Virus record (IMG/VR): IMGVR_UViG_2663762948_000006
Coordinates: 1-9,758 of that record
Direction: 5' to 3' (one strand)
DNA: 9,758 nucleotides
DNA from: a virus
Lineage: Duplodnaviria > Heunggongvirae > Uroviricota > Caudoviricetes
A program made the position numbers and the translations under genes. Every line of letters starts with the position of its first letter. Position 1 is the stretch's first letter. Under the pieces are notes generated by a model. The model was given only the letters and a program-made list of their open reading frames with translations, ran no database searches and was not told the origin of the DNA. Of the stretch, positions 1-9,758 are shown piece by piece.

Positions 1-219
1 TTACATCCACATAATTTGCTGCCCTGATGGCAACGGGTGCGGCCTTACGGCGTGGACTTCTCCCGGCTTCACGATGTATCGCTGTACCGACTCATAAGTG
101 ATGAACGTGGCGCTGCAATTCACGTTCTGGCACTGATGATAACGCTCTTTTGTCGTGTCAGTGATATAGCGGCTTGTACGCGCATGTGCGGCATGCTGGC
201 ATAAAGGACAATGAAACAT
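1..219 (-). CDS. ogr: Ogr late-gene transcriptional activator (zinc-finger, P2 Ogr / P4 Delta family), 72 aa
   Basis: Translation from ATG at 217-219 gives MFHCPLCQHAAHARTSRYITDTTKERYHQCQNVNC..., with the CxxC...CxxxxC zinc-finger spacing and the 72-aa length of P2 Ogr. The 93-aa ORF in the track begins at an upstream TTG (280-282) and is probably an over-extension. SD-like GGAAGAGG lies about 8 nt upstream of the ATG on the minus strand. Confidence 0.9.
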   Translation of the reverse strand: MFHCPLCQHAAHARTSRYITDTTKERYHQCQNVNCSATFITYESVQRYIVKPGEVHAVRPHPLPSGQQIMWM

Positions 220-253
220 CGCGAGCACCTCTTCCGGTTTTGTTGATGGTGCC

Positions 254-282
254 ATTTTAGTTAATTTATCCTTACAAAACAA
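254..282 (-). promoter_or_regulatory. Putative sigma70 promoter for ogr (-35 TTGTTT, 17-bp spacer, -10 TAAAAT, read on minus strand)
   Basis: By eye: reverse complement of 277-282 is TTGTTT and of 254-259 is TAAAAT, 17 bp apart, about 35 nt upstream of the ogr ATG. No experimental support. Confidence 0.3.
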
Positions 283-300
283 ACAGATAAAACAAAAACA

Positions 301-1464
301 TCACTCATCATCTTCTGTTTCGTACTCCACATCAGAAAGCCTGACCTCAAGCTCTAAGGACGTCGTGAAGCCGCTATTATTCAGAAAATGTGTCACCTTA
401 GTGATTGTCCAGTCCTGCTCGTCTATGACGCGCTTAAAGCCAGACACTTTGACCGGTGTTTCCGTGTAAATATCTGCCCGACCGGTAGCCAGGCTGATGG
501 AGAACTCCGCAACGCCCCGTTGCAGTTTATCCCACTTCGCCTGAGCGGCGCGCATGGCCTGCGCTTTCGTGGCATATACCGTGGTCAGGGCAAAAACGTT
601 GTCAGCCTCACCGGCCATGTATTCACCTTCACGCGCTTCCGGTACTTTAGGCGCTTTCTTCTGCCTGACCGGTTTCGCTTTCGGGTGCTCCAGTGCGCGC
701 AGGTGTTTCTCTTTCTTTTTGCGTTTCAGTTTTACCTTCTGCTTTTGCGGCTTCGGGTCTTTAGTGTGTAGCCATTTTGCCGTTACACCGGTGTAGGCTC
801 CACGGTCAGCAATCGCAAAATGATGGCGGTCGCCGTCGCTGCGGGTTATGGTGACCTGCGGGATTTTTTTACCGCTGGCCGTCACTCCCTGCCCCGCTTT
901 GAGAAACAACAGTTTTCCCATTTTTACCGACACCTCACCGCCGTTGCGTTCTGCAAGACGGGTCAGGAATTTCGCATCAGACTCCTGCGACTGGTCGATG
1001 TGTGGAATTTTTATTCCGGCCAGTGACGGAGCGACACTGGCTTCCAGCCTGTTACGGGTGGCTATCGCCTTAACAATCGCACCGAGCGTGGTGTCATGCC
1101 AGGAGCCTTCCCGGCGGGAATTGAGCGTCCCGCGAAAATCTGCACTCCGGGCGCGGATGGTGACTACATCCGGTGCGCCCCGGTGTTCAACCTCATCAAC
1201 GGTAAATTTCCCTTTGCATACCAGGGCAAAACCTTTCCAGCCGATATACACCGTCAGGACAGCGCCACGAACCGGCAGCCCGACCTGCCCGTCGGCATCG
1301 TTCAGTTCAATATCAAGCTGGTCAGCCTCAAAGCCCCGGTTATCCGTCAGGGTCATGCTCATCAGACGGTCGCTGATATTGCCGGTAATATCCCTGCTGT
1401 CGAGCATCAGCATGTAATCCGGCGTCAGCGTACTGCCTGCATCAAATGTCAGCGCATCCAGCAT
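301..1464 (-). CDS. D: P2-type tail protein gpD (late control gene D), 387 aa
   Basis: 387-aa ORF, the length of P2 gpD, lying directly upstream of ogr as in P2 (T-U-D-ogr). The start ATG (1462-1464) overlaps the stop of the upstream gene as TAATG on the minus strand. Contains a Lys-rich basic segment. Confidence 0.88.
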   Translation of the reverse strand: MLDALTFDAGSTLTPDYMLMLDSRDITGNISDRLMSMTLTDNRGFEADQLDIELNDADGQVGLPVRGAVLTVYIGWKGFALVCKGKFTVDEVEHRGAPDVVTIRARSADFRGTLNSRREGSWHDTTLGAIVKAIATRNRLEASVAPSLAGIKIPHIDQSQESDAKFLTRLAERNGGEVSVKMGKLLFLKAGQGVTASGKKIPQVTITRSDGDRHHFAIADRGAYTGVTAKWLHTKDPKPQKQKVKLKRKKKEKHLRALEHPKAKPVRQKKAPKVPEAREGEYMAGEADNVFALTTVYATKAQAMRAAQAKWDKLQRGVAEFSISLATGRADIYTETPVKVSGFKRVIDEQDWTITKVTHFLNNSGFTTSLELEVRLSDVEYETEDDE

Positions 1465-1943
1465 TATCCCGCCCCCGTCATACCTGTGAATCTGGTCGCC
1501 ATACTGCCGGCCTTACCGATGAGCGATTCCGCCTGTTTACCGATATCGCCATAAAGCGCGGCCAGTGATTCATCAACGCGGGTGAGTGACAGCGTAAAAT
1601 CAATTTTCCGGGGTGTGCCGTCTGCAAAGAAAATACTCCCTGTTTCACTCACCCTGCTGATGACATACATGCCGTAAATCATGCCGGTGCCATCCAGCAA
1701 CGGCCACGCCCGCCCCTCCTCTGCCATCAGCCTGAGCGTGGTCATCGTCAGCTTGCCGCCGGTCAGTTCGGGATAAAGCACACCGGCCAGCGTGATGTTT
1801 TCCTCACCCACACCGAGAAACTGAAAGGCATCCCGTTTACCGATACGGGAATTTGACGGCCAGCGATAATCTGATTCACGCTGCATGGTCTGGTGTGGCA
1901 GCGTCTGGCGCATAAAAACAAACATACCTAACGCGAGCATCAT
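1464..1943 (-). CDS. U: P2-type tail protein gpU, 159 aa
   Basis: 159-aa ORF, the length of P2 gpU, between the T remnant and D on the same strand; its stop overlaps the D start. Confidence 0.85.
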   Translation of the reverse strand: MMLALGMFVFMRQTLPHQTMQRESDYRWPSNSRIGKRDAFQFLGVGEENITLAGVLYPELTGGKLTMTTLRLMAEEGRAWPLLDGTGMIYGMYVISRVSETGSIFFADGTPRKIDFTLSLTRVDESLAALYGDIGKQAESLIGKAGSMATRFTGMTGAG

Positions 1944-1957
1944 TTTTCGTCACCTCC

Positions 1958-2743
1958 TTAACCGTCATGCATCATGCTGGCACGGGCGCGCACACGTTTA
2001 TCCCGCTCGTATTTTTCGAGCGCATCCTGTAACTGGCGGTCAAGCTGTGTCCCCGGCGCAGTCCCCCCCGTCAGGCTGATGTGATATTCGTTTTTACTCT
2101 GGTCTACATAAGAGCGGCCAGCCGGTGCCGTGACCGGCTGATAAGCCTGATAGCCTGCATAAGAGCTGGTCGCCGGAATATAGTCACCGGTACCATACGT
2201 GGCGGTATGAGTTCTGGCGGCGGTCTGGTCAAGTGTGTCTGACTCTTTGTTGATAACACCGAGTTTTTCCAGTACCCAGTCAATACCACTGCGCAGTTTG
2301 TTGAACGCATTAAGCGGCAGCATCAACGCGTCAGCCAGTGCCTGCCCGAACATGACGCCCGTGTCACGGCAACGGTTCAGGGTGTCCTGGGTGGCTTTGA
2401 CCGGGGCAATCAGGTTTTTAAACCACTGCCACGCGGCCTGTAACTTTTCGCCCAGCCAGTCAAAAACCGGTTTAAGTGGCGTGAACAGTTCCCCCACCGG
2501 CGCAAATGCCGCTTTCAGCCCTTCAACCACACCACCAAAGAATGCGCTGACAGGCTCCCAGTATTTACGGATAAGCAACGCACCGGCGACAATGGCAGCC
2601 ACCACGGCCACAACCGGCCAGCTAATCGCCCCGATGGCCGTCATAACGGCACTGCCAACCGTCGTGAAGATTGCCCCCATTGCGCCTGCTGCCGCGATGA
2701 TGGCATTGATGCCGGTGATACCCATTCTGGTCGGGTGAACTGT
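1958..2743 (-). pseudogene. T: Tape-measure protein gpT, 3'-terminal remnant (about 255-261 codons of roughly 815); 5' part deleted
   Basis: The ORF ends 14 nt upstream of U as in P2 (T then U). The translation has a long Ala/Gly/Ile-rich hydrophobic segment and a C-terminal region typical of tape-measure proteins. The frame is closed by an in-frame stop at 2744-2746, so only the C-terminal third is present. First ATG is at 2723-2725. Confidence 0.8.
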
Positions 2744-3615
2744 TCAACCGGGGACGCGCCAGCGCCGCCGAACGCGTGGAAATCGACGTCAGTCATAACG
2801 CCCTTGCCGGAGGTCTTCTCTGTGCGGACGGCCAGTGGCGGCAGATTGTCACCATTGAGGACGCACTGAAAGGCGGCTGCACGCTGTTCGACATTGAGCA
2901 GCTCAAACGCGAAAACAGCGCCGACGATTTTAAAAACCTGTTCATGTGTGAATTTGTTGACGACAAGGCGTCGGTATTCCCGTTCGAGGAGCTGCAACGC
3001 TGCATGGTCGACACGCTGGAAGAATGGGAAGACTATGCGCCGTTTGCCGCCAATCCGTTCGGCTCCCGCCCGGTATGGATTGGTTACGACCCGTCACACC
3101 GTGGCGACAGCGCCGGATGCGTGGTGCTGGCACCGCCGGTGGTGGCCGGTGGCAAATTCAGAATACTTGAGCGTCACCAGTGGAAAGGCATGGACTTTGC
3201 CACCCAGGCGGAATCCATCCGCAAACTCACCAAAAAATATAACGTCGAATACATCGGTATTGATGCCACCGGCCTCGGTGTCGGCGTGTTCCAGCTCGTG
3301 CGCTCGTTCTATCCCGCCGCGCGCGACATCCGCTACACACCGGAAATGAAAACCGCAATGGTGCTCAAGGCAAAAGACGTTATCCGCCGTGGCTGTCTGG
3401 AATATGACGTCAGCGCCACCGACATCACCAGCTCGTTTATGGCTATCCGCAAGACCATGACCAGCAGCGGACGCAGCGCCACCTATGAGGCCAGCCGCAG
3501 CGAGGAAGCCAGCCACGCCGACCTCGCCTGGGCGACCATGCACGCTCTGTTAAATGAGCCACTCACCGCCGGTATCAGCACCCCGCTGACATCCACCATT
3601 CTGGAGTTTTACTGA
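2719..3615 (+). pseudogene. P: Terminase large subunit gpP, 3'-terminal remnant (nuclease-domain half); 5' half deleted
   Basis: The frame is open only from 2719 (in-frame stop at 2716-2718) and its first start codon is GTG at 2776. The translation carries terminase nuclease-domain-like motifs (WIGYDPSHRGDSAG, EYIGIDATGLGVG). Its stop overlaps the Q start (TGATG at 3613-3617), matching the P-Q order of P2. P2 gpP is about 590 aa; only about 280-300 codons remain. Confidence 0.8.
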
Positions 3616-4649
3616 TGAGCAAGAAAAAAGGGAAAACACCGCAACCTGCGGCAAAAAAAATGACCGCCAGCGCCCCGAAAATGGAGGCATTCACCTTTGG
3701 CGAACCGGTGCCGGTACTCGACCGCCGTGACATTCTGGATTACGTCGAATGCATCAGTAACGGCAGATGGTATGAGCCACCGGTCAGCTTTACCGGTCTG
3801 GCAAAAAGCCTGCGTGCTGCCGTGCATCACAGCTCCCCGATTTACGTCAAACGTAATATTCTGGCTTCAACGTTTATCCCGCATCCGTGGCTTTCCCAGC
3901 AGGATTTCAGCCGCTTTGTGCTGGATTTTCTGGTGTTCGGTAATGCGTTTCTGGAAAAGCGTTACAGCACCACCGGTAAGGTCATCAGACTGGAAACCTC
4001 ACCGGCAAAATATACCCGCCGTGGCGTGGAGGAGGATGTTTACTGGTGGGTGCCGTCCTTCAACGAGCCGACAGCCTTCGCGCCCGGCTCCGTGTTTCAC
4101 CTGCTGGAGCCGGATATTAATCAGGAGCTGTACGGCCTGCCGGAATATCTCAGCGCCCTTAACTCTGCCTGGCTGAATGAGTCGGCCACGCTGTTCCGCC
4201 GCAAGTATTACGAAAACGGCGCTCATGCCGGATATATCATGTACGTCACCGATGCCGTGCAGGATCGCAACGATATCGAAATGCTTCGCGAAAACATGGT
4301 CAAGTCGAAAGGCCGCAACAACTTTAAAAATCTGTTTCTCTATGCCCCACAGGGGAAAGCCGACGGTATTAAAATTATCCCCCTCAGTGAAGTGGCAACG
4401 AAGGACGATTTTTTTAATATCAAAAAAGCCAGCGCCGCTGACCTGCTGGACGCACACCGCATCCCCTTTCAGTTGATGGGCGGCAAGCCGGAGAACGTCG
4501 GATCGCTGGGTGATATTGAAAAAGTGGCAAAGGTCTTTGTCCGCAATGAGCTTATCCCGCTACAGGACAGAATTCGGGAAATAAACGGCTGGCTCGGCCA
4601 GGAGGTCATCCGCTTTAAAAACTATTCACTGGAGACTGACAACGGCTGA
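3615..4649 (+). CDS. Q: Portal (capsid vertex) protein gpQ, 344 aa
   Basis: 344-aa ORF, the length of P2 gpQ, immediately next to cos as in P2. GGAG lies 8 nt upstream of the ATG. Translationally coupled to the P remnant. Confidence 0.9.
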   Translation: MSKKKGKTPQPAAKKMTASAPKMEAFTFGEPVPVLDRRDILDYVECISNGRWYEPPVSFTGLAKSLRAAVHHSSPIYVKRNILASTFIPHPWLSQQDFSRFVLDFLVFGNAFLEKRYSTTGKVIRLETSPAKYTRRGVEEDVYWWVPSFNEPTAFAPGSVFHLLEPDINQELYGLPEYLSALNSAWLNESATLFRRKYYENGAHAGYIMYVTDAVQDRNDIEMLRENMVKSKGRNNFKNLFLYAPQGKADGIKIIPLSEVATKDDFFNIKKASAADLLDAHRIPFQLMGGKPENVGSLGDIEKVAKVFVRNELIPLQDRIREINGWLGQEVIRFKNYSLETDNG

Positions 4650-4654
4650 ACATC

Positions 4655-4676
4655 GCCGCCTGCGGGCGGCTTTTTT
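4655..4676 (+). terminator. Rho-independent terminator downstream of Q
   Basis: GCCGCC (4655-4660), loop TGCG, GGCGGC (4665-4670), followed by TTTTTT (4671-4676), starting 6 nt after the Q stop codon. Confidence 0.55.
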
Positions 4677-4818
4677 ACACCCCGCCATCACGCCCTCACA
4701 CGCTCATCACCGCACAAAAAATCCCGCAGACACACCAACGCCTCAACGGGCAGACTAAGCGCCGTCACGACGCGCTCAGACGCTGAAAAAATAAAATCAG
4801 CACCACCGCCAGCGCGCA

Positions 4819-4837
4819 GTGCTTTCCCCGCCTCGCC
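4819..4837. other. P2/P4-type cos site (19-nt cohesive-end sequence)
   Basis: Plus strand 4819-4837 is gtgctttccccgcctcgcc, whose reverse complement GGCGAGGCGGGGAAAGCAC is the 19-nt P2 cohesive end as I recall it. The flanking sequence toward Q also matches my recollection of the P2 left end. Confidence 0.72.
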
Positions 4838-5000
4838 CGCCCGCTTCATGGAGCGCTTTTAATGCAGTTGCAATAACACATCAAAACATCGTCAATACAG
4901 GCGATTATAAACAATAAAAAACGATCGCTGCCGCATGCAAAATCATGCACTAAATGCATGTATTGAAGGGAAATTAGGAACGTGCTCGTTTGGGTCTAAA

Positions 5001-5897
5001 CTATGATTTCGACACAACTATTTTCCCCAAATCAAAACTAAATTCGACATCCCCATTTACGATATTTTCATTTGTCACATGCTCATCAAAAAGGTCACTA
5101 ACATCATACCCCGACTGAAACACTGGGCTCATGATAGCCACGTCGGTGAATGGCTCTTTTTCATGTGTTATATAATATTGACCATAAACATTTGCAGATT
5201 CATCTGCATCATTAAGACTAAGGACTGTTTTTGCTTTGACTTCAGGCATCAGAGAAAAATCAATATTATTCAACAAACACAGTAAGATGCCTGCTATTGC
5301 TCTCCTGTTATTATCAAGCGGCATCAAGTCCACCCCTGGAATCTCCTTCCGAAGCAATATTTTCAGCTCATTAAATAAAGAGTCGAACTTAATTGCGTCA
5401 GAACAATTGAGTAACGACAAAGCTTCATTAATCATTCGCCCTTCATTGGAACCAATTTCTGATGTTAACTTACAAACACCATCATTAACAATATACGATT
5501 TTTTGTTATTAAGCTTCTTCCTCGCTGTAATTACCTGCCCCCCCTTTAAGTTTAACTTCTCCTTTAAAAACTCATCACTGAACATTCTTAATTGCAGTCT
5601 GATTAATGTAGGTAAGTATTTCGGGTATTCATTTAACTCTGGTTTAACAGCATGCTTGTCGCGTCCAAATTTTAAACTTAATAACAAATGATTCCTCAGC
5701 ATGATATCCTTTATCTCGCCTTGATCTCTCCGATGATTATGGGCAACAAAACTCCCAATTTCAAAAATACACTTGGGCGCACTCGGCAACTCACGGGCCG
5801 TAACAAAAAGAACATCAATATCACTATCAGTGAAACTCCCATCCTTTAATCTTCTCAACACTCTCTCTATTCTTGAGATTGCTTTACTTTTATTCAT
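5001..5897 (-). CDS. Hypothetical protein, 298 aa; low-GC cargo gene in the P2 tin/old hotspot position; function unknown
   Basis: Long uninterrupted ORF with an ATG start (5895-5897) in a visibly AT-rich block that contrasts with the surrounding P2 backbone. Lys/Asn/Ile-rich composition. I see no Walker A, HNH, HExxH or other recognisable catalytic motif. It lies between cos and the replication gene, where P2 carries tin and old. Confidence 0.7.
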   Translation of the reverse strand: MNKSKAISRIERVLRRLKDGSFTDSDIDVLFVTARELPSAPKCIFEIGSFVAHNHRRDQGEIKDIMLRNHLLLSLKFGRDKHAVKPELNEYPKYLPTLIRLQLRMFSDEFLKEKLNLKGGQVITARKKLNNKKSYIVNDGVCKLTSEIGSNEGRMINEALSLLNCSDAIKFDSLFNELKILLRKEIPGVDLMPLDNNRRAIAGILLCLLNNIDFSLMPEVKAKTVLSLNDADESANVYGQYYITHEKEPFTDVAIMSPVFQSGYDVSDLFDEHVTNENIVNGDVEFSFDLGKIVVSKS

Positions 5898-6177
5898 GAC
5901 ATTCTTTCAACCTTAATCAATATTTAATTTAAACAAACCATTCTCATACGCCAACCATACCTGTGACACCTGACAAACCAAATAAAAACAAAGGTACAGC
6001 GGATATTGGTATGTACAGCTATATTACACATAAACTCATGTTAGTAACATAAGATCTTCTTGTGAATATTTGTAATTTATTAGTTCACCAACATTAATCT
6101 TTCCAACCGTTATAAATCCAATCATATGCTGATACTCAAATGACGGCCAACTACCACCTCGCGCTGTTCGTTGTTCC

Positions 6178-6220
6178 CTCCAGCAGCACTGGAAGCATGT
6201 TTCAGTACTGCTGGGGTTTT
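6178..6220. terminator. Stem-loop (about 12-14 bp stem, one mismatch) followed by a T-run on the plus strand; possible bidirectional terminator
   Basis: CCAGCAGCACTG (6180-6191) pairs with CAGTACTGCTGG (6203-6214) around an 11-nt loop, then GGTTTT (6215-6220). It sits immediately after the stop of orf67 (6224) on the minus strand, but the U-tract is on the plus-strand side. Confidence 0.3.
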
Positions 6221-6223
6221 CTA

Positions 6224-6427
6224 TCAACAACGTGGTAGCAGTGCAATTTTAGACTGTTCTATATCGTTAAACCGCACGTAATTATCCCGGACTATTTCGG
6301 CACACCCGACCAACTCGTCGGGCGTCAGATTTTCGTTGACCATAATCTGCTGTAGACGGTGAACAATAGCCATCAGCTTGATATTTTTAGTGTTATGTTG
6401 CGGTATCTCGCCTGGTATTCTGTGCAT
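6224..6427 (-). CDS. Hypothetical small protein, 67 aa (from ATG at 6425-6427)
   Basis: The ATG overlaps the TAA stop of the upstream DUF3850-like gene (TAATG on minus strand), suggesting translational coupling. No recognisable motif. The track ORF (6224..6439) starts at an upstream GTG. Confidence 0.35.
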   Translation of the reverse strand: MHRIPGEIPQHNTKNIKLMAIVHRLQQIMVNENLTPDELVGCAEIVRDNYVRFNDIEQSKIALLPRC

Positions 6428-6882
6428 TATCCAAGCCACCCGTTTTGCTTTGCACGCTCAATCTGTTCATCTGAATAGTTCCATGCTCCATCCGTGGCAA
6501 CCATTGCCCCGCCAGACATCCCCGTCTCTGGTTCATACATAACAGCAAGGCCGAGCTGATGCATAATTTCATGATTAATTCTGAATACCAGACCACGCTC
6601 ACTAAGTTCTTTCCAGTTCACAATCTCATATGCGCCTGTATTAAGCTGCTCAATACTTAGCAAGACATAATCTTCCAGCCAGTCTGACAGGTCAGTAACA
6701 TCTGTTATCCGGGCTTCAACCTTTCGCCCCGTATACACACCCTGCACCCATTCATGCAAAATCAACGTGTCCCCGCGCTCATAATTACGGTCATTTTTCC
6801 GAAACTCTGCGCGTTTCTTTCCTTCCAGCACAAGGTCGAAATATTTTGCGTGCAGCTTTACCTCGTGAATTTTTGCCATCAT
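6427..6882 (-). CDS. DUF3850/ASCH-like (PUA-fold) domain protein with a C-terminal HExxH motif, about 151 aa
   Basis: The N-terminal region (KIHEVKLHAKYFDLVLEGKKRAEFRKNDRNYERGDTLILHEW...YTGR) resembles the DUF3850/ASCH-like family as I recall it. The C-terminal part contains HEIMH (6559-6573), an HExxH zinc-binding-like motif. The likely start is the ATGATG at 6877-6882, which overlaps the TGA stop of A (6879-6881); the track ORF extends 11 codons further upstream into A. Confidence 0.65.
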   Translation of the reverse strand: MMAKIHEVKLHAKYFDLVLEGKKRAEFRKNDRNYERGDTLILHEWVQGVYTGRKVEARITDVTDLSDWLEDYVLLSIEQLNTGAYEIVNWKELSERGLVFRINHEIMHQLGLAVMYEPETGMSGGAMVATDGAWNYSDEQIERAKQNGWLG

Positions 6883-8729
6883 GTCCACTCCATTACTGTT
6901 GAGAATCCCGGCCACTCATCAGCGACCGGATACGTGAATTTTTTCCCGTCATAATTTACAGTCGCGCCACGCGCCAGCGCCTCAAGCTCCCATCGCTGCG
7001 GCCTGATACCGTTCTGAGCAAGGTCAACGCGGATACGGGTGATTTGCATTCGTTCCGACCGGGTCAGTCTGGCAGATGGTGCAATTTCATGCGGTTTTAA
7101 CGGGCTTCCGTTTCTTTGCTGACGGTTTGGCGTTCTCATGTCGTATTTTAATGCGCCCCTGAGCGCCCTCACGACCTCCGGTTCATTCCATTCAATAACA
7201 CCGTCATCAACCAGATTAAGCACTGCTGCGGCGTGCTCAGAAGGTGTGGGAGCCGGTAACGAAGTATCACCACCGGTGAGCTTTCCACAGTTATTGACAG
7301 GACTCCGAGGCGCGGCGATGCCGCTTTTTAAAGTCAAAGGCTCAACGACCGGAACTTTCGGCACAATGCGCCAGTCCGTCGTTCTGGTGATATGAATATG
7401 ACGCGCGCCGAGATGCGGCGCGTAAATGCCGACCACTCTCTCGACTTCTTCCTCGTACTCGTTAACGTCATCCGACGGGCTACGGGCAACCCTGACAGTC
7501 TGACAATCGCGCGGGACATTTGCCCCACCCTGCGCGCTGATATACAACGCAAAATCACCACTGTCTGCGGCAGCGCGAGCAGCCTCGACGCGTTCGTCAA
7601 ACTCATCAGCAATACTGACGCCGCGAGGCAATTTGCGTAGTTCACGGTAAGCCCCCATTGTCGGCAGTCCAACCGTTTTAAATTGCGGGATGCGCCACGT
7701 TGACGCCCATGCGGTAACAGCCGCGGCAGTATCTTTAAGCGGCTTACCGGTATCGTTATCGAGCTGACCATCCAGTGCATAGCCGTCGATATTTTTTGAA
7801 ATGTATTTCGCGATATATCCCGCAGCACCGCCCCGGTTAAGGTGCTTTGCCTGAAAACGGTTTCGCGCGGCTCCTCTTTCGTCACCATCCTCTTTGAGCG
7901 CATAGCGACGCATGATTTCGATAATCTGGTTACGCTGGCGTGGATTACAAAAAAGCATCATATGCCAGTGCGGCGTTCCGTCGTGGTGTGGCTCGACGAC
8001 ACGCAAACCGTAGACCTGTAAATCATTATCCTTGAATGCCGTGCGCATCAGGCTCCAGATGCGGCAGAGATAACGCTGCGCATCCTTTGGATTAAATGCC
8101 TCATCGTTCCAGCCGTGATTAAGCTGAACGGTTTTACTTTCGCCTTTTCTGACCTGACGAGTCGGGTGATACTTTGACGGCGCGGTCAGCGTGATAAACA
8201 TCCCCACATCACCCTCTGCGGCGGCGTAACGCTCAATACCGGCAATGGTGTTCATCAGCTCCATCCGGCGAATTTCAGGATTAGAAATACTGCCCATCAC
8301 CTTACTGATAAGGTCGATGCGCTCGCCGGTTTCCCTGTTTTCAAGGTCACACGATTTAAGAAATTCCAGATTTGCCTGGCGGCGCGCACGCACATCACGA
8401 ATGGCGTGTTTACTGGCATACATCATGAAAAGCTGCGATGAGATACGGGCGGCAAACTTTTTCAGCTCCTTGTCATTCATTCCCGGCAGGCGCGCATAGT
8501 GGTCACGCTCTGCCAGAAACAGCAACGACGCGTCGGTGTTCATTTCATGGCGCTGATTCACACGCTCAATGCGCGGCCATAAACGACGCTGAAAAGTGGA
8601 TGTGAGAAAATAAAACCCGTGCACCGGGCTTTTATTACGCCGGATGTAGTCATAGCGTGAAGTAAACAGCGAGCGCAAAAAGTAAGGCAGGCGATTTATC
8701 GTGGATAACTCTATATAAAAATTACATTT
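6879..8729 (-). pseudogene. A: Rolling-circle replication initiator gpA, 5'-truncated (about 600-616 C-terminal codons of 761 retained)
   Basis: The translation contains the paired-tyrosine motif GYIAKYISK (Y288 and Y292 of the track ORF). P2 gpA is 761 aa with active-site tyrosines that I recall as Y450 and Y454; the offset of 162 plus 599 equals 761, so the C-terminus aligns exactly. The frame is closed by a stop at 8730-8732, the first start in frame is TTG (8676-8678) with no SD, and no B, cox or C genes lie upstream. Confidence 0.8.
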
Positions 8730-8755
8730 TCACCATTTGCCACCAAGATGGTGAA
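8729..8755. promoter_or_regulatory. Nested inverted repeat immediately upstream of int (possible operator or protein-binding site)
   Basis: TTCACCA (8729-8735) and TGGTGAA (8749-8755) are 7-bp inverted arms 13 bp apart; nested inside is CACCA-AGA-TGGTG (8741-8753). It lies 23 nt upstream of the int ATG within the A'/int junction region. Function is inferred only. Confidence 0.25.
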
Positions 8756-8777
8756 TACAGCGCCGGAGGGCTTTCTT

Positions 8778-9758
8778 ATGGCAATTAAGAAGCTCGATGA
8801 TGGTCGCTATGAAGTGGACATTAGACCTCGCGGTCGCGACGGAAAACGCATCCGCAGGAAATTTGAAAGAAAAGCTGAAGCACTAGCATTTGAGCGATAC
8901 ACAATCGCCAATGCCAGTCAGAAAGAATGGGGAGGCCAGCGAGCAGACCGCCGAACTTTGACAGAATTGCTCGACATCTGGTGGAAATACCACGGGCAAA
9001 ACCACGAGCATGGGACAAAAGAGTTTAATCATCTGCTCAAAACCATCAGCGGCATAGGTGATATACCAGTGAGTCGGATGAACAAAAGGGCTTTGATGGA
9101 TTATCGCTCCATGCGACTACGTGATGGCATCAGTGCTGCAACGATAAACCGCGACATGTACCGATTATCCGGCATGTTCACAAAATTAATTCAATTGGAT
9201 GAATTTTCCGGGCAACACCCAATTCACGGACTGCCGCCACTGACGGAGGCTAACCCTGAAATGACGTTCCTGGAAAAAGCAGAAATCGAAAAACTGCTAA
9301 ATGTTTTGACTGGTGATGACTTACTTGTCGCGCTTTTATGTCTGAGCACTGGAGGAAGGTGGACGGAAGTTGCCACGCTAAAACCAGCACAGATTACAAG
9401 TTGCAGGGTTACCTTCCTGAAAACCAAAAACGGTAAAAAGCGAACAGTGCCGATTTCTGAGGAACTGGAGAAAAAAGTTAAAGAGGAGGCCAGCGCCAAA
9501 TTGTTCAAGGTAGATTATGAGAAGTTTTGCGGGATTTTACGCAGAGTGAAACCTGATATACCTCCCAATCAGGCAACCCACATTCTGCGGCATACATTCG
9601 CAAGCCATTTCATGATGAATGGGGGCAACATAATTGCACTGCAACAGATTCTGGGGCATGCGAGCATTCAGCAGACAATGACCTATGCGCACCTTGCGCC
9701 TGACTACCTGCAGAACGCCGTCGCTCTGAATCCACTAAAAGGCGGAGTGACGTTATAA
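8778..9758 (+). CDS. int: Tyrosine recombinase, P2-type integrase (326 aa from ATG 8778; alternative start ATG 8748 gives 336 aa)
   Basis: N-terminus MAIKKLDDGRYEVDIRP... matches my recollection of P2-family Int. The C-terminal catalytic region carries the tyrosine-recombinase signature (HILRHTFASHFMMNGG...LGHASIQQTMTYAHL). GGAGGG lies 8 nt upstream of ATG 8778; the upstream ATG at 8748 has no SD. Confidence 0.9.
   Translation: MAIKKLDDGRYEVDIRPRGRDGKRIRRKFERKAEALAFERYTIANASQKEWGGQRADRRTLTELLDIWWKYHGQNHEHGTKEFNHLLKTISGIGDIPVSRMNKRALMDYRSMRLRDGISAATINRDMYRLSGMFTKLIQLDEFSGQHPIHGLPPLTEANPEMTFLEKAEIEKLLNVLTGDDLLVALLCLSTGGRWTEVATLKPAQITSCRVTFLKTKNGKKRTVPISEELEKKVKEEASAKLFKVDYEKFCGILRRVKPDIPPNQATHILRHTFASHFMMNGGNIIALQQILGHASIQQTMTYAHLAPDYLQNAVALNPLKGGVTL

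Follow-up and report, generated by a model that had tools for sequence, protein, structure and literature searches.

The window, by which we mean the whole stretch of 9,758 bp of viral DNA that was analysed, is very probably a cryptic, immobile P2-like (Peduovirus) prophage remnant residing at the cpxP/fieF site of one E. coli strain. As such it belongs to a known and ordinary kind of element, the cryptic P2 remnants. The lesions that inactivate essential phage functions are three deletions and an IS150 element, and together with the truncated genes T, P and A they bear out the decaying prophage that the first-pass annotation had offered as its fallback. We determined the anatomy of the remnant, its junctions, its chromosomal site and its uniqueness, and weighed whether the element could instead be a satellite or a retained cargo island.

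Gene content and chromosomal site

All 9,758 bp of the window match the E. coli draft contig LIVB01000020.1 (GCA_001419895.1) with 100% identity; its neighbours there are cpxP-cpxR-cpxA, the site being the cpxP/fieF P2 attachment site. As had been annotated, its two ends are stop codons, that of ogr at base 1 (minus strand) and that of int at base 9758. Compared with P2-like phages, e.g. vB_EcoM-12474III, the retained segments form five collinear blocks of 94-98% identity, in agreement with the earlier description as a miniaturised P2 derivative. The gene content given there (int, cos, ogr, portal, gpA core and a cargo gene) is real, with Int, Ogr, Q and cos intact. Full-length products are Ogr (72 aa), gpD (387 aa), gpU (159 aa), the portal protein Q (344 aa) and Int (326 aa); the tape-measure protein T, the terminase P and the replication protein A are cut short. 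Of the late genes, D, U and Q alone have survived whole, whereas T and P are truncated and everything in between is deleted, so that every head, lysis and baseplate gene, most tail genes and the terminase ATPase domain are absent. Genes cox, C and B are not among the window genes either, leaving both the regulatory int-C-cox region and the A/B replication set incomplete. All non-truncated ORFs are intact across the window, which fits either recent decay or selection. An Rfam search and a tRNA scan of the window gave no match.

At the left end the late-gene activator gene ogr (positions 1-219, minus strand; Pfam Ogr_Delta, E 1e-21) is intact, its product being identical to OgrK of strain M217 in 72 of 72 residues. 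It is followed on the same strand by the genes for the tail proteins gpD (301-1464; Pfam Phage_GPD; 379/387 residues identical to the phage gpD), whose late promoter PF is deleted, and gpU (1464-1943; Pfam Phage_P2_GpU; 155/159 identical). Alignment to full-length gpT and BLAST mapping identified the adjoining fragment T' (1958-2723, minus strand) as the C-terminal 253 residues of the tape-measure protein (563-815 of 815). The end of an IS150 lies ~25 bp past the ogr stop codon and falls within the terminator hairpin of ogr; 102 bp beyond the window, still inside this element, the source contig terminates.

On the plus strand the fragment 'P of the large terminase subunit (2719-3615; Pfam Terminase_6C and the tail of Terminase_6N) aligns to residues 293-590 of 590; it keeps the nuclease domain but has neither the ATPase domain nor the PP promoter any more. 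The portal gene Q (3615-4649, plus strand; Pfam Phage_portal) is full length with 343 of 344 residues identical. D, U, T', 'P and Q are thus retained but have no late promoters, and we infer that such promoter-less leftover genes are not expressed. The cos cohesive-end 19-mer GGCGAGGCGGGGAAAGCAC (4819-4837, minus strand), read directly, is the exact P2 sequence, recurs unchanged at 9 further P2 loci of E. coli and has flanks that are collinear with those of full-length prophages.

Between cos and A, in the cos-proximal hotspot of P2, lies the cargo gene (5001-5897, minus strand), an ORF of 298 codons with a low GC content of 36-37%, confirming that the cargo is retained. This hotspot between Q/cos and A is documented (PMC9122126). 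The protein belongs to PHROG 29586, to which no function is assigned, and has no match in Pfam, PADLOC or NCBIfam. Full-length P2 prophages encoding the identical protein occupy three att sites, and its family is conserved in Enterobacterales. AF2 predicted its structure with a pLDDT of 91 (39 for single-sequence AlphaFold), and the predicted fold matched no PDB entry. The cargo probably has an anti-phage or other accessory function; as it lacks a PADLOC, Pfam, NCBIfam or fold match, a role in defence is a guess from its position. An uncharacterised, confidently folded family that has no solved structural relative and occupies an anti-phage hotspot can reasonably be put forward for defence screens. 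Two accessory genes follow on the minus strand, a small P2 orf of 67 aa (6224-6427; PHROG 11386), located at the same place in full-length prophages, and a gene call for a DUF3850/ASCH-domain protein of 150 aa (6427-6879; Pfam DUF3850, DUF7415 and ASCH).

The replication initiator remnant A' (6879-8714, minus strand) comprises residues 54-149 and 249-761 of 761 and is therefore 152 residues short (1-53 and 150-248). It retains the Phage_GPA domain, and PHWHMML and GYIAKYISK, which we take to be the HUH and twin-tyrosine active-site motifs of gpA, are readable in its translation. It has neither an ATG nor a GTG start, its frame is closed by a stop 8 codons upstream, and Pe, its promoter, has been deleted. 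Of the gpA core proposed earlier the domain is thus confirmed, whereas the start and the internal residues 150-248 are gone. At the right end the gene for the tyrosine integrase (8778-9758, plus strand; Pfam Int_N and Phage_integrase) is intact, and its product is identical in thousands of full-length prophages at the cpxP site. Among the matches listed, int follows a 97-aa C gene in all ten; in the window it is severed from C and Pc. No promoter-like site was found between A' and int (8700-8780). Promoter-like sites numbered 6 versus 9.2 expected from shuffled sequences, and because they are not enriched we set them aside as positive evidence.

The att sites had been expected just outside the window. 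This is half true. On the int side, towards cpxP, a 47-bp att core is located 114-161 bp outside the window; on the ogr side IS150 intervenes and the contig stops within it. A direct-repeat search for att in the source contig gave chance-level matches only, since attL lies beyond the contig end.

Deletion junctions and their distribution

Mapping of the window onto vB_EcoM-12474III, with truncations placed by residue-level alignment, revealed three deletions with 4-7 nt overlaps instead of the two annotated previously. J1 (2719-2723) joins T' to 'P with loss of ~18.7 kb at a TA(CC) microhomology, coupling residue 563 of T to residue 293 of P, its right endpoint being nucleotide 2704 of P in vB_EcoM-12474III coordinates. 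J2 (8417-8420) is an in-frame deletion of 297 bp inside A (residues 150-248) with CATA as microhomology. J3 (8702-8708) results from a 2.6-kb deletion reaching from codon 53 of A to a point 7 bp short of the stop codon of C, by which residues 1-53 of A, four small orfs, B, cox, C except for its last bases, Pe and Pc are lost. With these losses, which include both promoters of the switch, the element has neither an excisionase nor a functional replicon, and int and A' are left without a promoter. Positions 2719-8420 are collinear with full-length prophages that carry the identical cargo, such as that of GPEC1209 (about 98-98.5% identity), and relative to these about 21.6 kb, ~two thirds of the genes, are missing.

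None of the junctions was found in the collections searched. For J1 these were 5,426 complete E. coli genomes, the GTDB representatives and JGI metagenomes, none of which gave a contiguous match; J2 had none in the complete E. coli genomes, and J3 was absent from both the complete E. coli genomes and the GTDB representatives. In exact-protein look-ups the 611-aa A' product was recorded from a single contig only, and this look-up succeeded with the first residue replaced by M. Look-ups of T', and of A' starting from TTG or ATA, gave no match because gene callers skipped these ORFs or wrote M as first residue. Uniqueness thus refers to exact-pattern and exact-protein look-ups and to complete genomes, drafts being covered by the exact-protein index only. 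Conservation of the junctions across genomes, proposed as a check, was not observed; the configuration is confined to one assembly, and this points to an event of recent date and not to retention over a long time.

As a side observation, the same gene P nucleotide recurs as a deletion endpoint in independent P2 remnants. A 9-nt perfect inverted repeat flanks P site 2704, with the endpoint lying off its base. A pattern search of IMG/VR for non-canonical bases before this site returned nine loci, all with intact P and a synonymous change. Several explanations for the site were considered and either rejected or not adopted: a Chi site (sequence and orientation are wrong), a P2 cos-like or att-like sequence and a gix/cix-type invertase site (no similarity in either case), IS-mediated adjacent deletion (no IS is left at the junctions, unlike in strain EC2), and shared descent of the P junction, against which the comparison with full-length prophages argues.

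Origin of the remnant and alternative readings

The decayed-prophage explanation starts from a full-length P2 prophage with the same hotspot cargo that was later trimmed. Three illegitimate deletions, each at a microhomology of 4-7 nt, shrank it, and it also carries IS150 beside ogr. The first deletion cost it every head, lysis and baseplate gene, most of the tail genes and half of the terminase, and another took 99 codons inside A. With the third went the switch between lysis and lysogeny, including the repressor C and the excisionase Cox, as well as the replication gene B and the beginning of A. What is left of D, U, T, P, Q and A is promoter-less and has yet to accumulate point damage, and the parts likely to act still are the hotspot cargo, ogr (as ogrK does in K-12) and possibly int. 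Owing to the three deletions the remnant is unable to repress, excise, replicate or build particles alone. Its passive mobilisation is formally conceivable, as int and cos are intact and so is the att core next to int.

The first-pass annotation had called the retained set not random and compatible with a helper-dependent, satellite-like element. According to such a reading a P2-like helper would give Cox, replication and capsids and the remnant Int, att, cos and Ogr; after excision the remnant would enter particles, either as a multimer or in heads of P4 size, and be transduced. We consider this very improbable. It can draw on the intact Int, identical to that of active-looking prophages, the intact cos 19-mer with its flanks, the attR core and the absence of the C repressor, owing to which a helper would not be excluded, and plasmids bearing a P2 or P4 cos can be packaged by P2. 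However, excisionase, the int promoter and B are all missing, A lacks its start and 152 residues, and IS150 stands between ogr and any attL. Moreover, gpA acts in cis, so that the A protein of a helper would be no substitute. We also found no Cox-, AlpA- or Xis-type ORF in the window by Pfam and ORF survey, i.e. no excision factor of its own. An excision factor and a replicon, both missing here, are needed even by minimal satellites (PMC10803314). [quoted passage not shown] Flanking decay (IS150 in the ogr terminator) and junctions present in one strain only had both been named in the first-pass annotation as grounds for refutation, and on these criteria the satellite-like reading fails. The gene set itself is accounted for by position: ogr and int are retained because both are terminal prophage genes, and cos because it directly adjoins the cargo hotspot. 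While a prophage decays, gene position alone can hence leave behind a set as suggestive as int, cos and a trans-activator.

Two further readings take the cargo as their starting point. That the element is a domesticated defence island and recombination reservoir, sustained by a benefit of the cargo, which phages swap via the Q-cos and A arms, is possible but rather unlikely; this overlaps with the decayed-prophage explanation and adds a claim of selection. The location of the cargo in the P2 hotspot, its identical copies in many full-length P2 prophages, and a conserved family with a well-predicted fold are in line with it, and this very possibility has been raised for defective P2 elements (PMC13586616). 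Other E. coli strains carry P2 remnants of similar general shape that are deleted differently, with different endpoints and in one case without most of Q, which also weighs against a satellite. Every remnant examined kept hotspot cargo, each a different one, in a sample that is biased towards hotspot-keeping remnants as it was collected by similarity to the window. The positional basis of the defence role and the occurrence in one assembly count against long retention for defence. Finally, we regard as improbable a recurrent, site-preferring deletion with endpoints at two TA dinucleotides in P, at positions 2704 and 3316, that makes cos-bearing mini-P2 islands, the window among them, kept as cargo or defence islands that incoming P2 phages can rescue or mobilise. 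There is evidence for deletion hotspots in the terminase gene P, which repeatedly yield 'grounded' prophages with their cargo kept, and this may matter more than the remnant itself; as a decayed prophage, the element is one more cryptic P2 remnant and a finding of little weight in itself.

Comparison with known systems

With P4 and P4-like satellites (PMC8628076) the window shares an integrase, a P2-type cos beside a cargo hotspot and an activator of the Ogr/Delta family. In contrast to them it lacks psu, sid, alpA, epsilon, the alpha primase-helicase and a replicon of its own, its sequence is that of P2 and not of P4, and it is not conserved as an element. PICMI satellites resemble it in their small size, the lack of capsid-remodelling genes and possible packaging as multimers, but besides int they encode a primase and AlpA as excision factor, and many strains carry them, conserved, at one and the same site (PMC10803314), whereas of these three genes the window has int only.

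The cpxP site and the identical cargo are shared with the full-length prophages of GPEC1209 (CM142785.1) and M45 (CP080119.1), in which, unlike in the window, no late gene is missing, C, cox and B are present, and A and P have their full length. Further relatives are defective, among them the ogrK/yegZ remnant of E. coli K-12 and the defective P2 prophage of E. coli B. Defective P2 elements with intact defence genes have been described (PMC13586616), and the window has in common with this group, including the K-12 and E. coli B elements, partly lost or pseudogenised core genes, a damaged replication gene, intact hotspot cargo, a P2 att site and an ogr kept at the prophage end. It differs from the group in its set of three junctions and IS150, found nowhere else, and from the K-12 remnant in keeping more, namely D, U, Q, cos, the core of A and int.

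Deletions and gene content of the window

The window matched 139 phage records, the best being P2-like coliphages and Yersinia phages with ~96-97% identity. Mapping onto Escherichia phage vB_EcoM-12474III resulted in five collinear blocks, implying three deletions, not two as proposed in the first-pass annotation. At the first junction (J1, window 2719-2723, microhomology TA(CC)) T is joined to P with removal of ~18.7 kb; no head, lysis or baseplate gene is left, and most tail genes are lost along with the N-terminal half of P. J2 (8417-8420, microhomology CATA) marks the in-frame loss of 297 bp inside A, and J3 (8702-8708, 7 nt, imperfect) a 2.6-kb loss that runs from codon 53 of A, ends 7 bp short of the stop codon of C and takes with it four small orfs as well as B, cox, C and the region of the divergent promoters Pe and Pc. 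The overlap is just 4-7 nt at each junction, which is the signature of illegitimate recombination.

The gene order was derived from the ORF listing and domain scans. The minus strand carries ogr (1-219), gpD (301-1464), gpU (1464-1943) and a C-terminal fragment of tape-measure gene T (T', 1958-2723), and is followed on the plus strand by a C-terminal fragment of the large terminase gene P ('P, 2719-3615) and portal gene Q (3615-4649), and then by a Q terminator and the cos region. A 298-aa ORF with 36-37% GC (cargo, 5001-5897), a 67-aa orf plus a DUF3850/ASCH protein (6224-6879) and shortened replication gene A (A', 6879-8714) are located on the minus strand, int (8778-9758) on the plus strand. 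The listing confirmed that the window starts with the ogr stop codon and finishes with that of int; tRNA and Rfam scans gave no match in the window. GC content drops from ~55% to 36-37% across the cargo gene, and the surrounding region 4882-6260 has no counterpart in vB_EcoM-12474III and is collinear, at ~98%, with full-length prophages bearing the same cargo.

In residue-level comparisons Q, D, U, Ogr and Int are full length, whereas T' comprises residues 563-815 of 815, 'P residues 293-590 of 590, and A' residues 54-149 and 249-761 of 761. The cos 19-mer is matched exactly. A' has neither an ATG nor a GTG start, an in-frame stop lies 8 codons upstream, and its promoter is deleted. The Phage_GPA domain is kept and the stretches PHWHMML and GYIAKYISK, which we take to be the HUH and twin-tyrosine motifs, are readable in the translation, making "replication-initiator core" a fair wording.

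Chromosomal site and flanks

A look-up of the cargo protein in the public gene index led to LIVB01000020.1 of E. coli assembly GCA_001419895.1, to which the whole window is 100% identical and where cpxP, cpxR and cpxA are the neighbours on the int side. A 47-bp att core, GATAAAAAAAACCCCCACATCATGTGGGGGAAGACAGGGATGGTGTC, was defined by comparing phage attP with the two ends of the isolateD prophage, which is better preserved and occupies the same site; the core is found in LIVB01000020.1 114-161 bp past the int stop, one C shorter. The expectation that att sites lie just outside the window therefore holds on the int side. On the ogr side the phage sequence breaks off inside the ogr terminator hairpin, ~25 bp past the stop codon, and adjoins TGTACTGCACCC..., with the contig ending 102 bp out; a search with this junction identified the adjoining sequence as an IS150 end.

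The identical ogr-IS150 junction was found in 73 complete genomes of E. coli, among them M217, whose prophage is nearly full length and has IS150 between ogr and fieF. IS150 in the ogr hairpin was located at 15898-15999 of locus L014, just outside window base 1, and at 6242-7683 of locus L016. Despite the same IS150 position the prophage DNA from ogr to T differs by ~3% between window and M217, suggesting either that IS150 prefers this target or that an old insertion was followed by recombination.

Two further observations concern this site and P2 prophages in general. A subset of cpxP-site prophages carries a 642-bp hypothetical gene (WP_000416606.1) between fieF and ogr (loci L002 5219-5860, L004 2219-2860, L016 5456-6097 and L032 723-1364), with an exact att core on the int side only; it may be a further variable cargo position beside attL or reflect a rearranged attL. 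Many "complete" E. coli chromosomes start at base 1 of a P2 gpA gene, window base 8708 matching record position 160 (e.g. RefSeq NZ_OY754407.1, NZ_CP041628.1 and NZ_CP076527.1; loci L005, L028 and L030), as genome-rotation software apparently took the prophage replication gene as start point, splitting the prophage over the record ends.

Distribution of the junctions

Parts of the window are matched by 2,679 of 5,426 complete E. coli genomes, none of which covers 80% of it in a single place. A 241-bp probe across J1 was fully covered in only 7 of these genomes, by two pieces over 627 bp, and was rejected there as a different junction; a 561-bp probe across J2 and J3 was never contiguously covered. 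Exact 30-35-mers across J1 and J3 were absent from a set of one genome per GTDB species, and the J1 pattern from JGI metagenome contigs. The A' product of 611 aa begins at J3 and spans J2; it is recorded from a single contig, which is listed for two samples. Thus, the search of other genomes for these junctions argues against a conserved configuration, J1-J3 being matched nowhere else in the collections covered.

By contrast, Int is identical to thousands of index entries, and in 10 of 10 places shown a 97-aa C gene adjoins the identical Int within much fuller prophages. For the cargo protein there are 236 index blocks; most of them are full-length P2 prophages, located at cpxP, yegR/yegS and one further site. 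A P2 remnant that is smaller still, ~6.9 kb, and has the same 298-aa cargo was found at the same cpxP/fieF site in ENA ERZ18534206 NODE_528 (locus L011, 5024-11908). It shares 99.6% identity with window positions 4357-6747 and has other deletions (Q'/ogr and cox-to-orf; A of 719 aa), which suggests that a related prophage decayed a second time, independently.

The cargo protein itself is assigned to PHROG 29586 and gave no match in Pfam, PADLOC or NCBIfam. Its 34 homologue clusters, down to 42% identity, are all unnamed, and those with a source name are all from Enterobacterales. The structure is predicted with high confidence (pLDDT 91) and the predicted fold has no match in the PDB; we regard it as a candidate anti-phage protein.

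Shared breakpoints in terminase gene P

The search for the junction of the window elsewhere yielded, window included, eleven P2 remnants that lost the prophage middle. Nine were mapped on one reference (coordinates of vB_EcoM-12474III), the AST46 junction was placed separately and EC2 was taken from annotation. All left endpoints differ, and the right endpoint is the same P nucleotide, 2704, in four remnants: window (left T, 17775), 26561 (D, 16116), isolateD (T, 18158) and AST46 (V, ~27620). A second nucleotide, 3316, is shared by PE15 (T, 18714) and K_EC180 (U, 16898). The remaining junctions are those of E423 (FI 20846 to P 2155), L3452210II (FII 20200 to P 2844), F247 (FI 21083 to Q 3885), ERZ18534206 NODE_528 (ogr/D 15423 to Q 4342) and EC2 (left U, ISEc12 at the junction). 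Nucleotide 2704 corresponds to window 2719-2723, L002 7063, L003 6103 and L031 9001, and nucleotide 3316 to L028 6160 and L029 4341.

All six recurrent-endpoint junctions fall on a TA dinucleotide, with 2-5 nt of microhomology, at times imperfect and longer, and both P sites have the context C-TAC-(C/A)C-G. In the 2,148 bp that adjoin the junction on its right, 26561 has the same sequence as the full-length prophage of M217 and differs from window and isolateD at 61-63 positions; the nearest relatives of the window in this stretch are full-length prophages. This divergence speaks for independent events and makes shared descent unlikely. A 300-bp probe centred on 2704 had a truncated best match in 16 of 1,630 records, one centred on 3316 in 21 of 1,559 and one between them in 4 of 1,529 (complete genomes, with clonal relatives inflating the counts).

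The endpoints showed no resemblance to Chi, cos, att or invertase sites, and no IS was left behind. In intact P genes, nucleotide 2704 is bracketed by the arms of a perfect inverted repeat of 9 nt (CGCTGGCGC / GCGCCAGCG, separated by 45 nt; L016 30041-30049 and 30095-30103, equivalent to window ~2702-2764); the window keeps only its right arm, and the repeat has no obvious relation to the endpoint. The microhomologies of J2 (CATA) and J3 (GGATAA/GGTTAA) also contain TA, and one process may lie behind all three deletions of the window.

Discussion

The first-pass annotation was largely right in what it observed, and suggested a helper-dependent, satellite-like element, which would have to be capable of excision, amplification and packaging. 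P2 excision requires Int together with Cox, which sets directionality (PMC3448106). In the window cox is deleted, C and Pc have been lost next to int, and the 70 bp between A' and int contain no promoter-like site. Replication is not credible as B is gone and A has lost 152 residues, its start codon and its promoter. P2 gpA acts in cis, so that the A protein of a helper would not substitute. According to the map on vB_EcoM-12474III, Ogr would be without cis targets, since the P-Q and tail-operon late promoters lie in the deleted DNA. The retained genes had been read as a non-random set in favour of such an element; the cargo hotspot lies between Q and A with cos directly beside it (PMC9122126), and the prophage has ogr and int as its outermost genes, so position accounts for the retained set. 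IS150 beside ogr and junctions unique to one assembly are, in addition, observations of the kind that the annotation itself had named as speaking against its proposal; a satellite-like element is not supported and we consider it highly improbable.

We conclude that the window is very probably a recently decayed, immobile prophage, i.e. a cryptic P2 remnant. Its untruncated ORFs have all stayed intact, and this form is restricted to a single assembly. Expression may persist for the cargo gene, and perhaps for ogr and int. Selection on the cargo, a reading that overlaps with prophage decay, is possible but rather doubtful. Worth following are the deletion hotspots in P and the orphan-fold cargo protein.

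[quoted passage not shown] The window fits the class of defective P2 elements with damaged replication genes and near-identical defence genes, for which the question has been posed if they are domesticated or still exchanging cargo (PMC13586616), and is a fresh example of an already known type, the cryptic P2 remnant with hotspot cargo.
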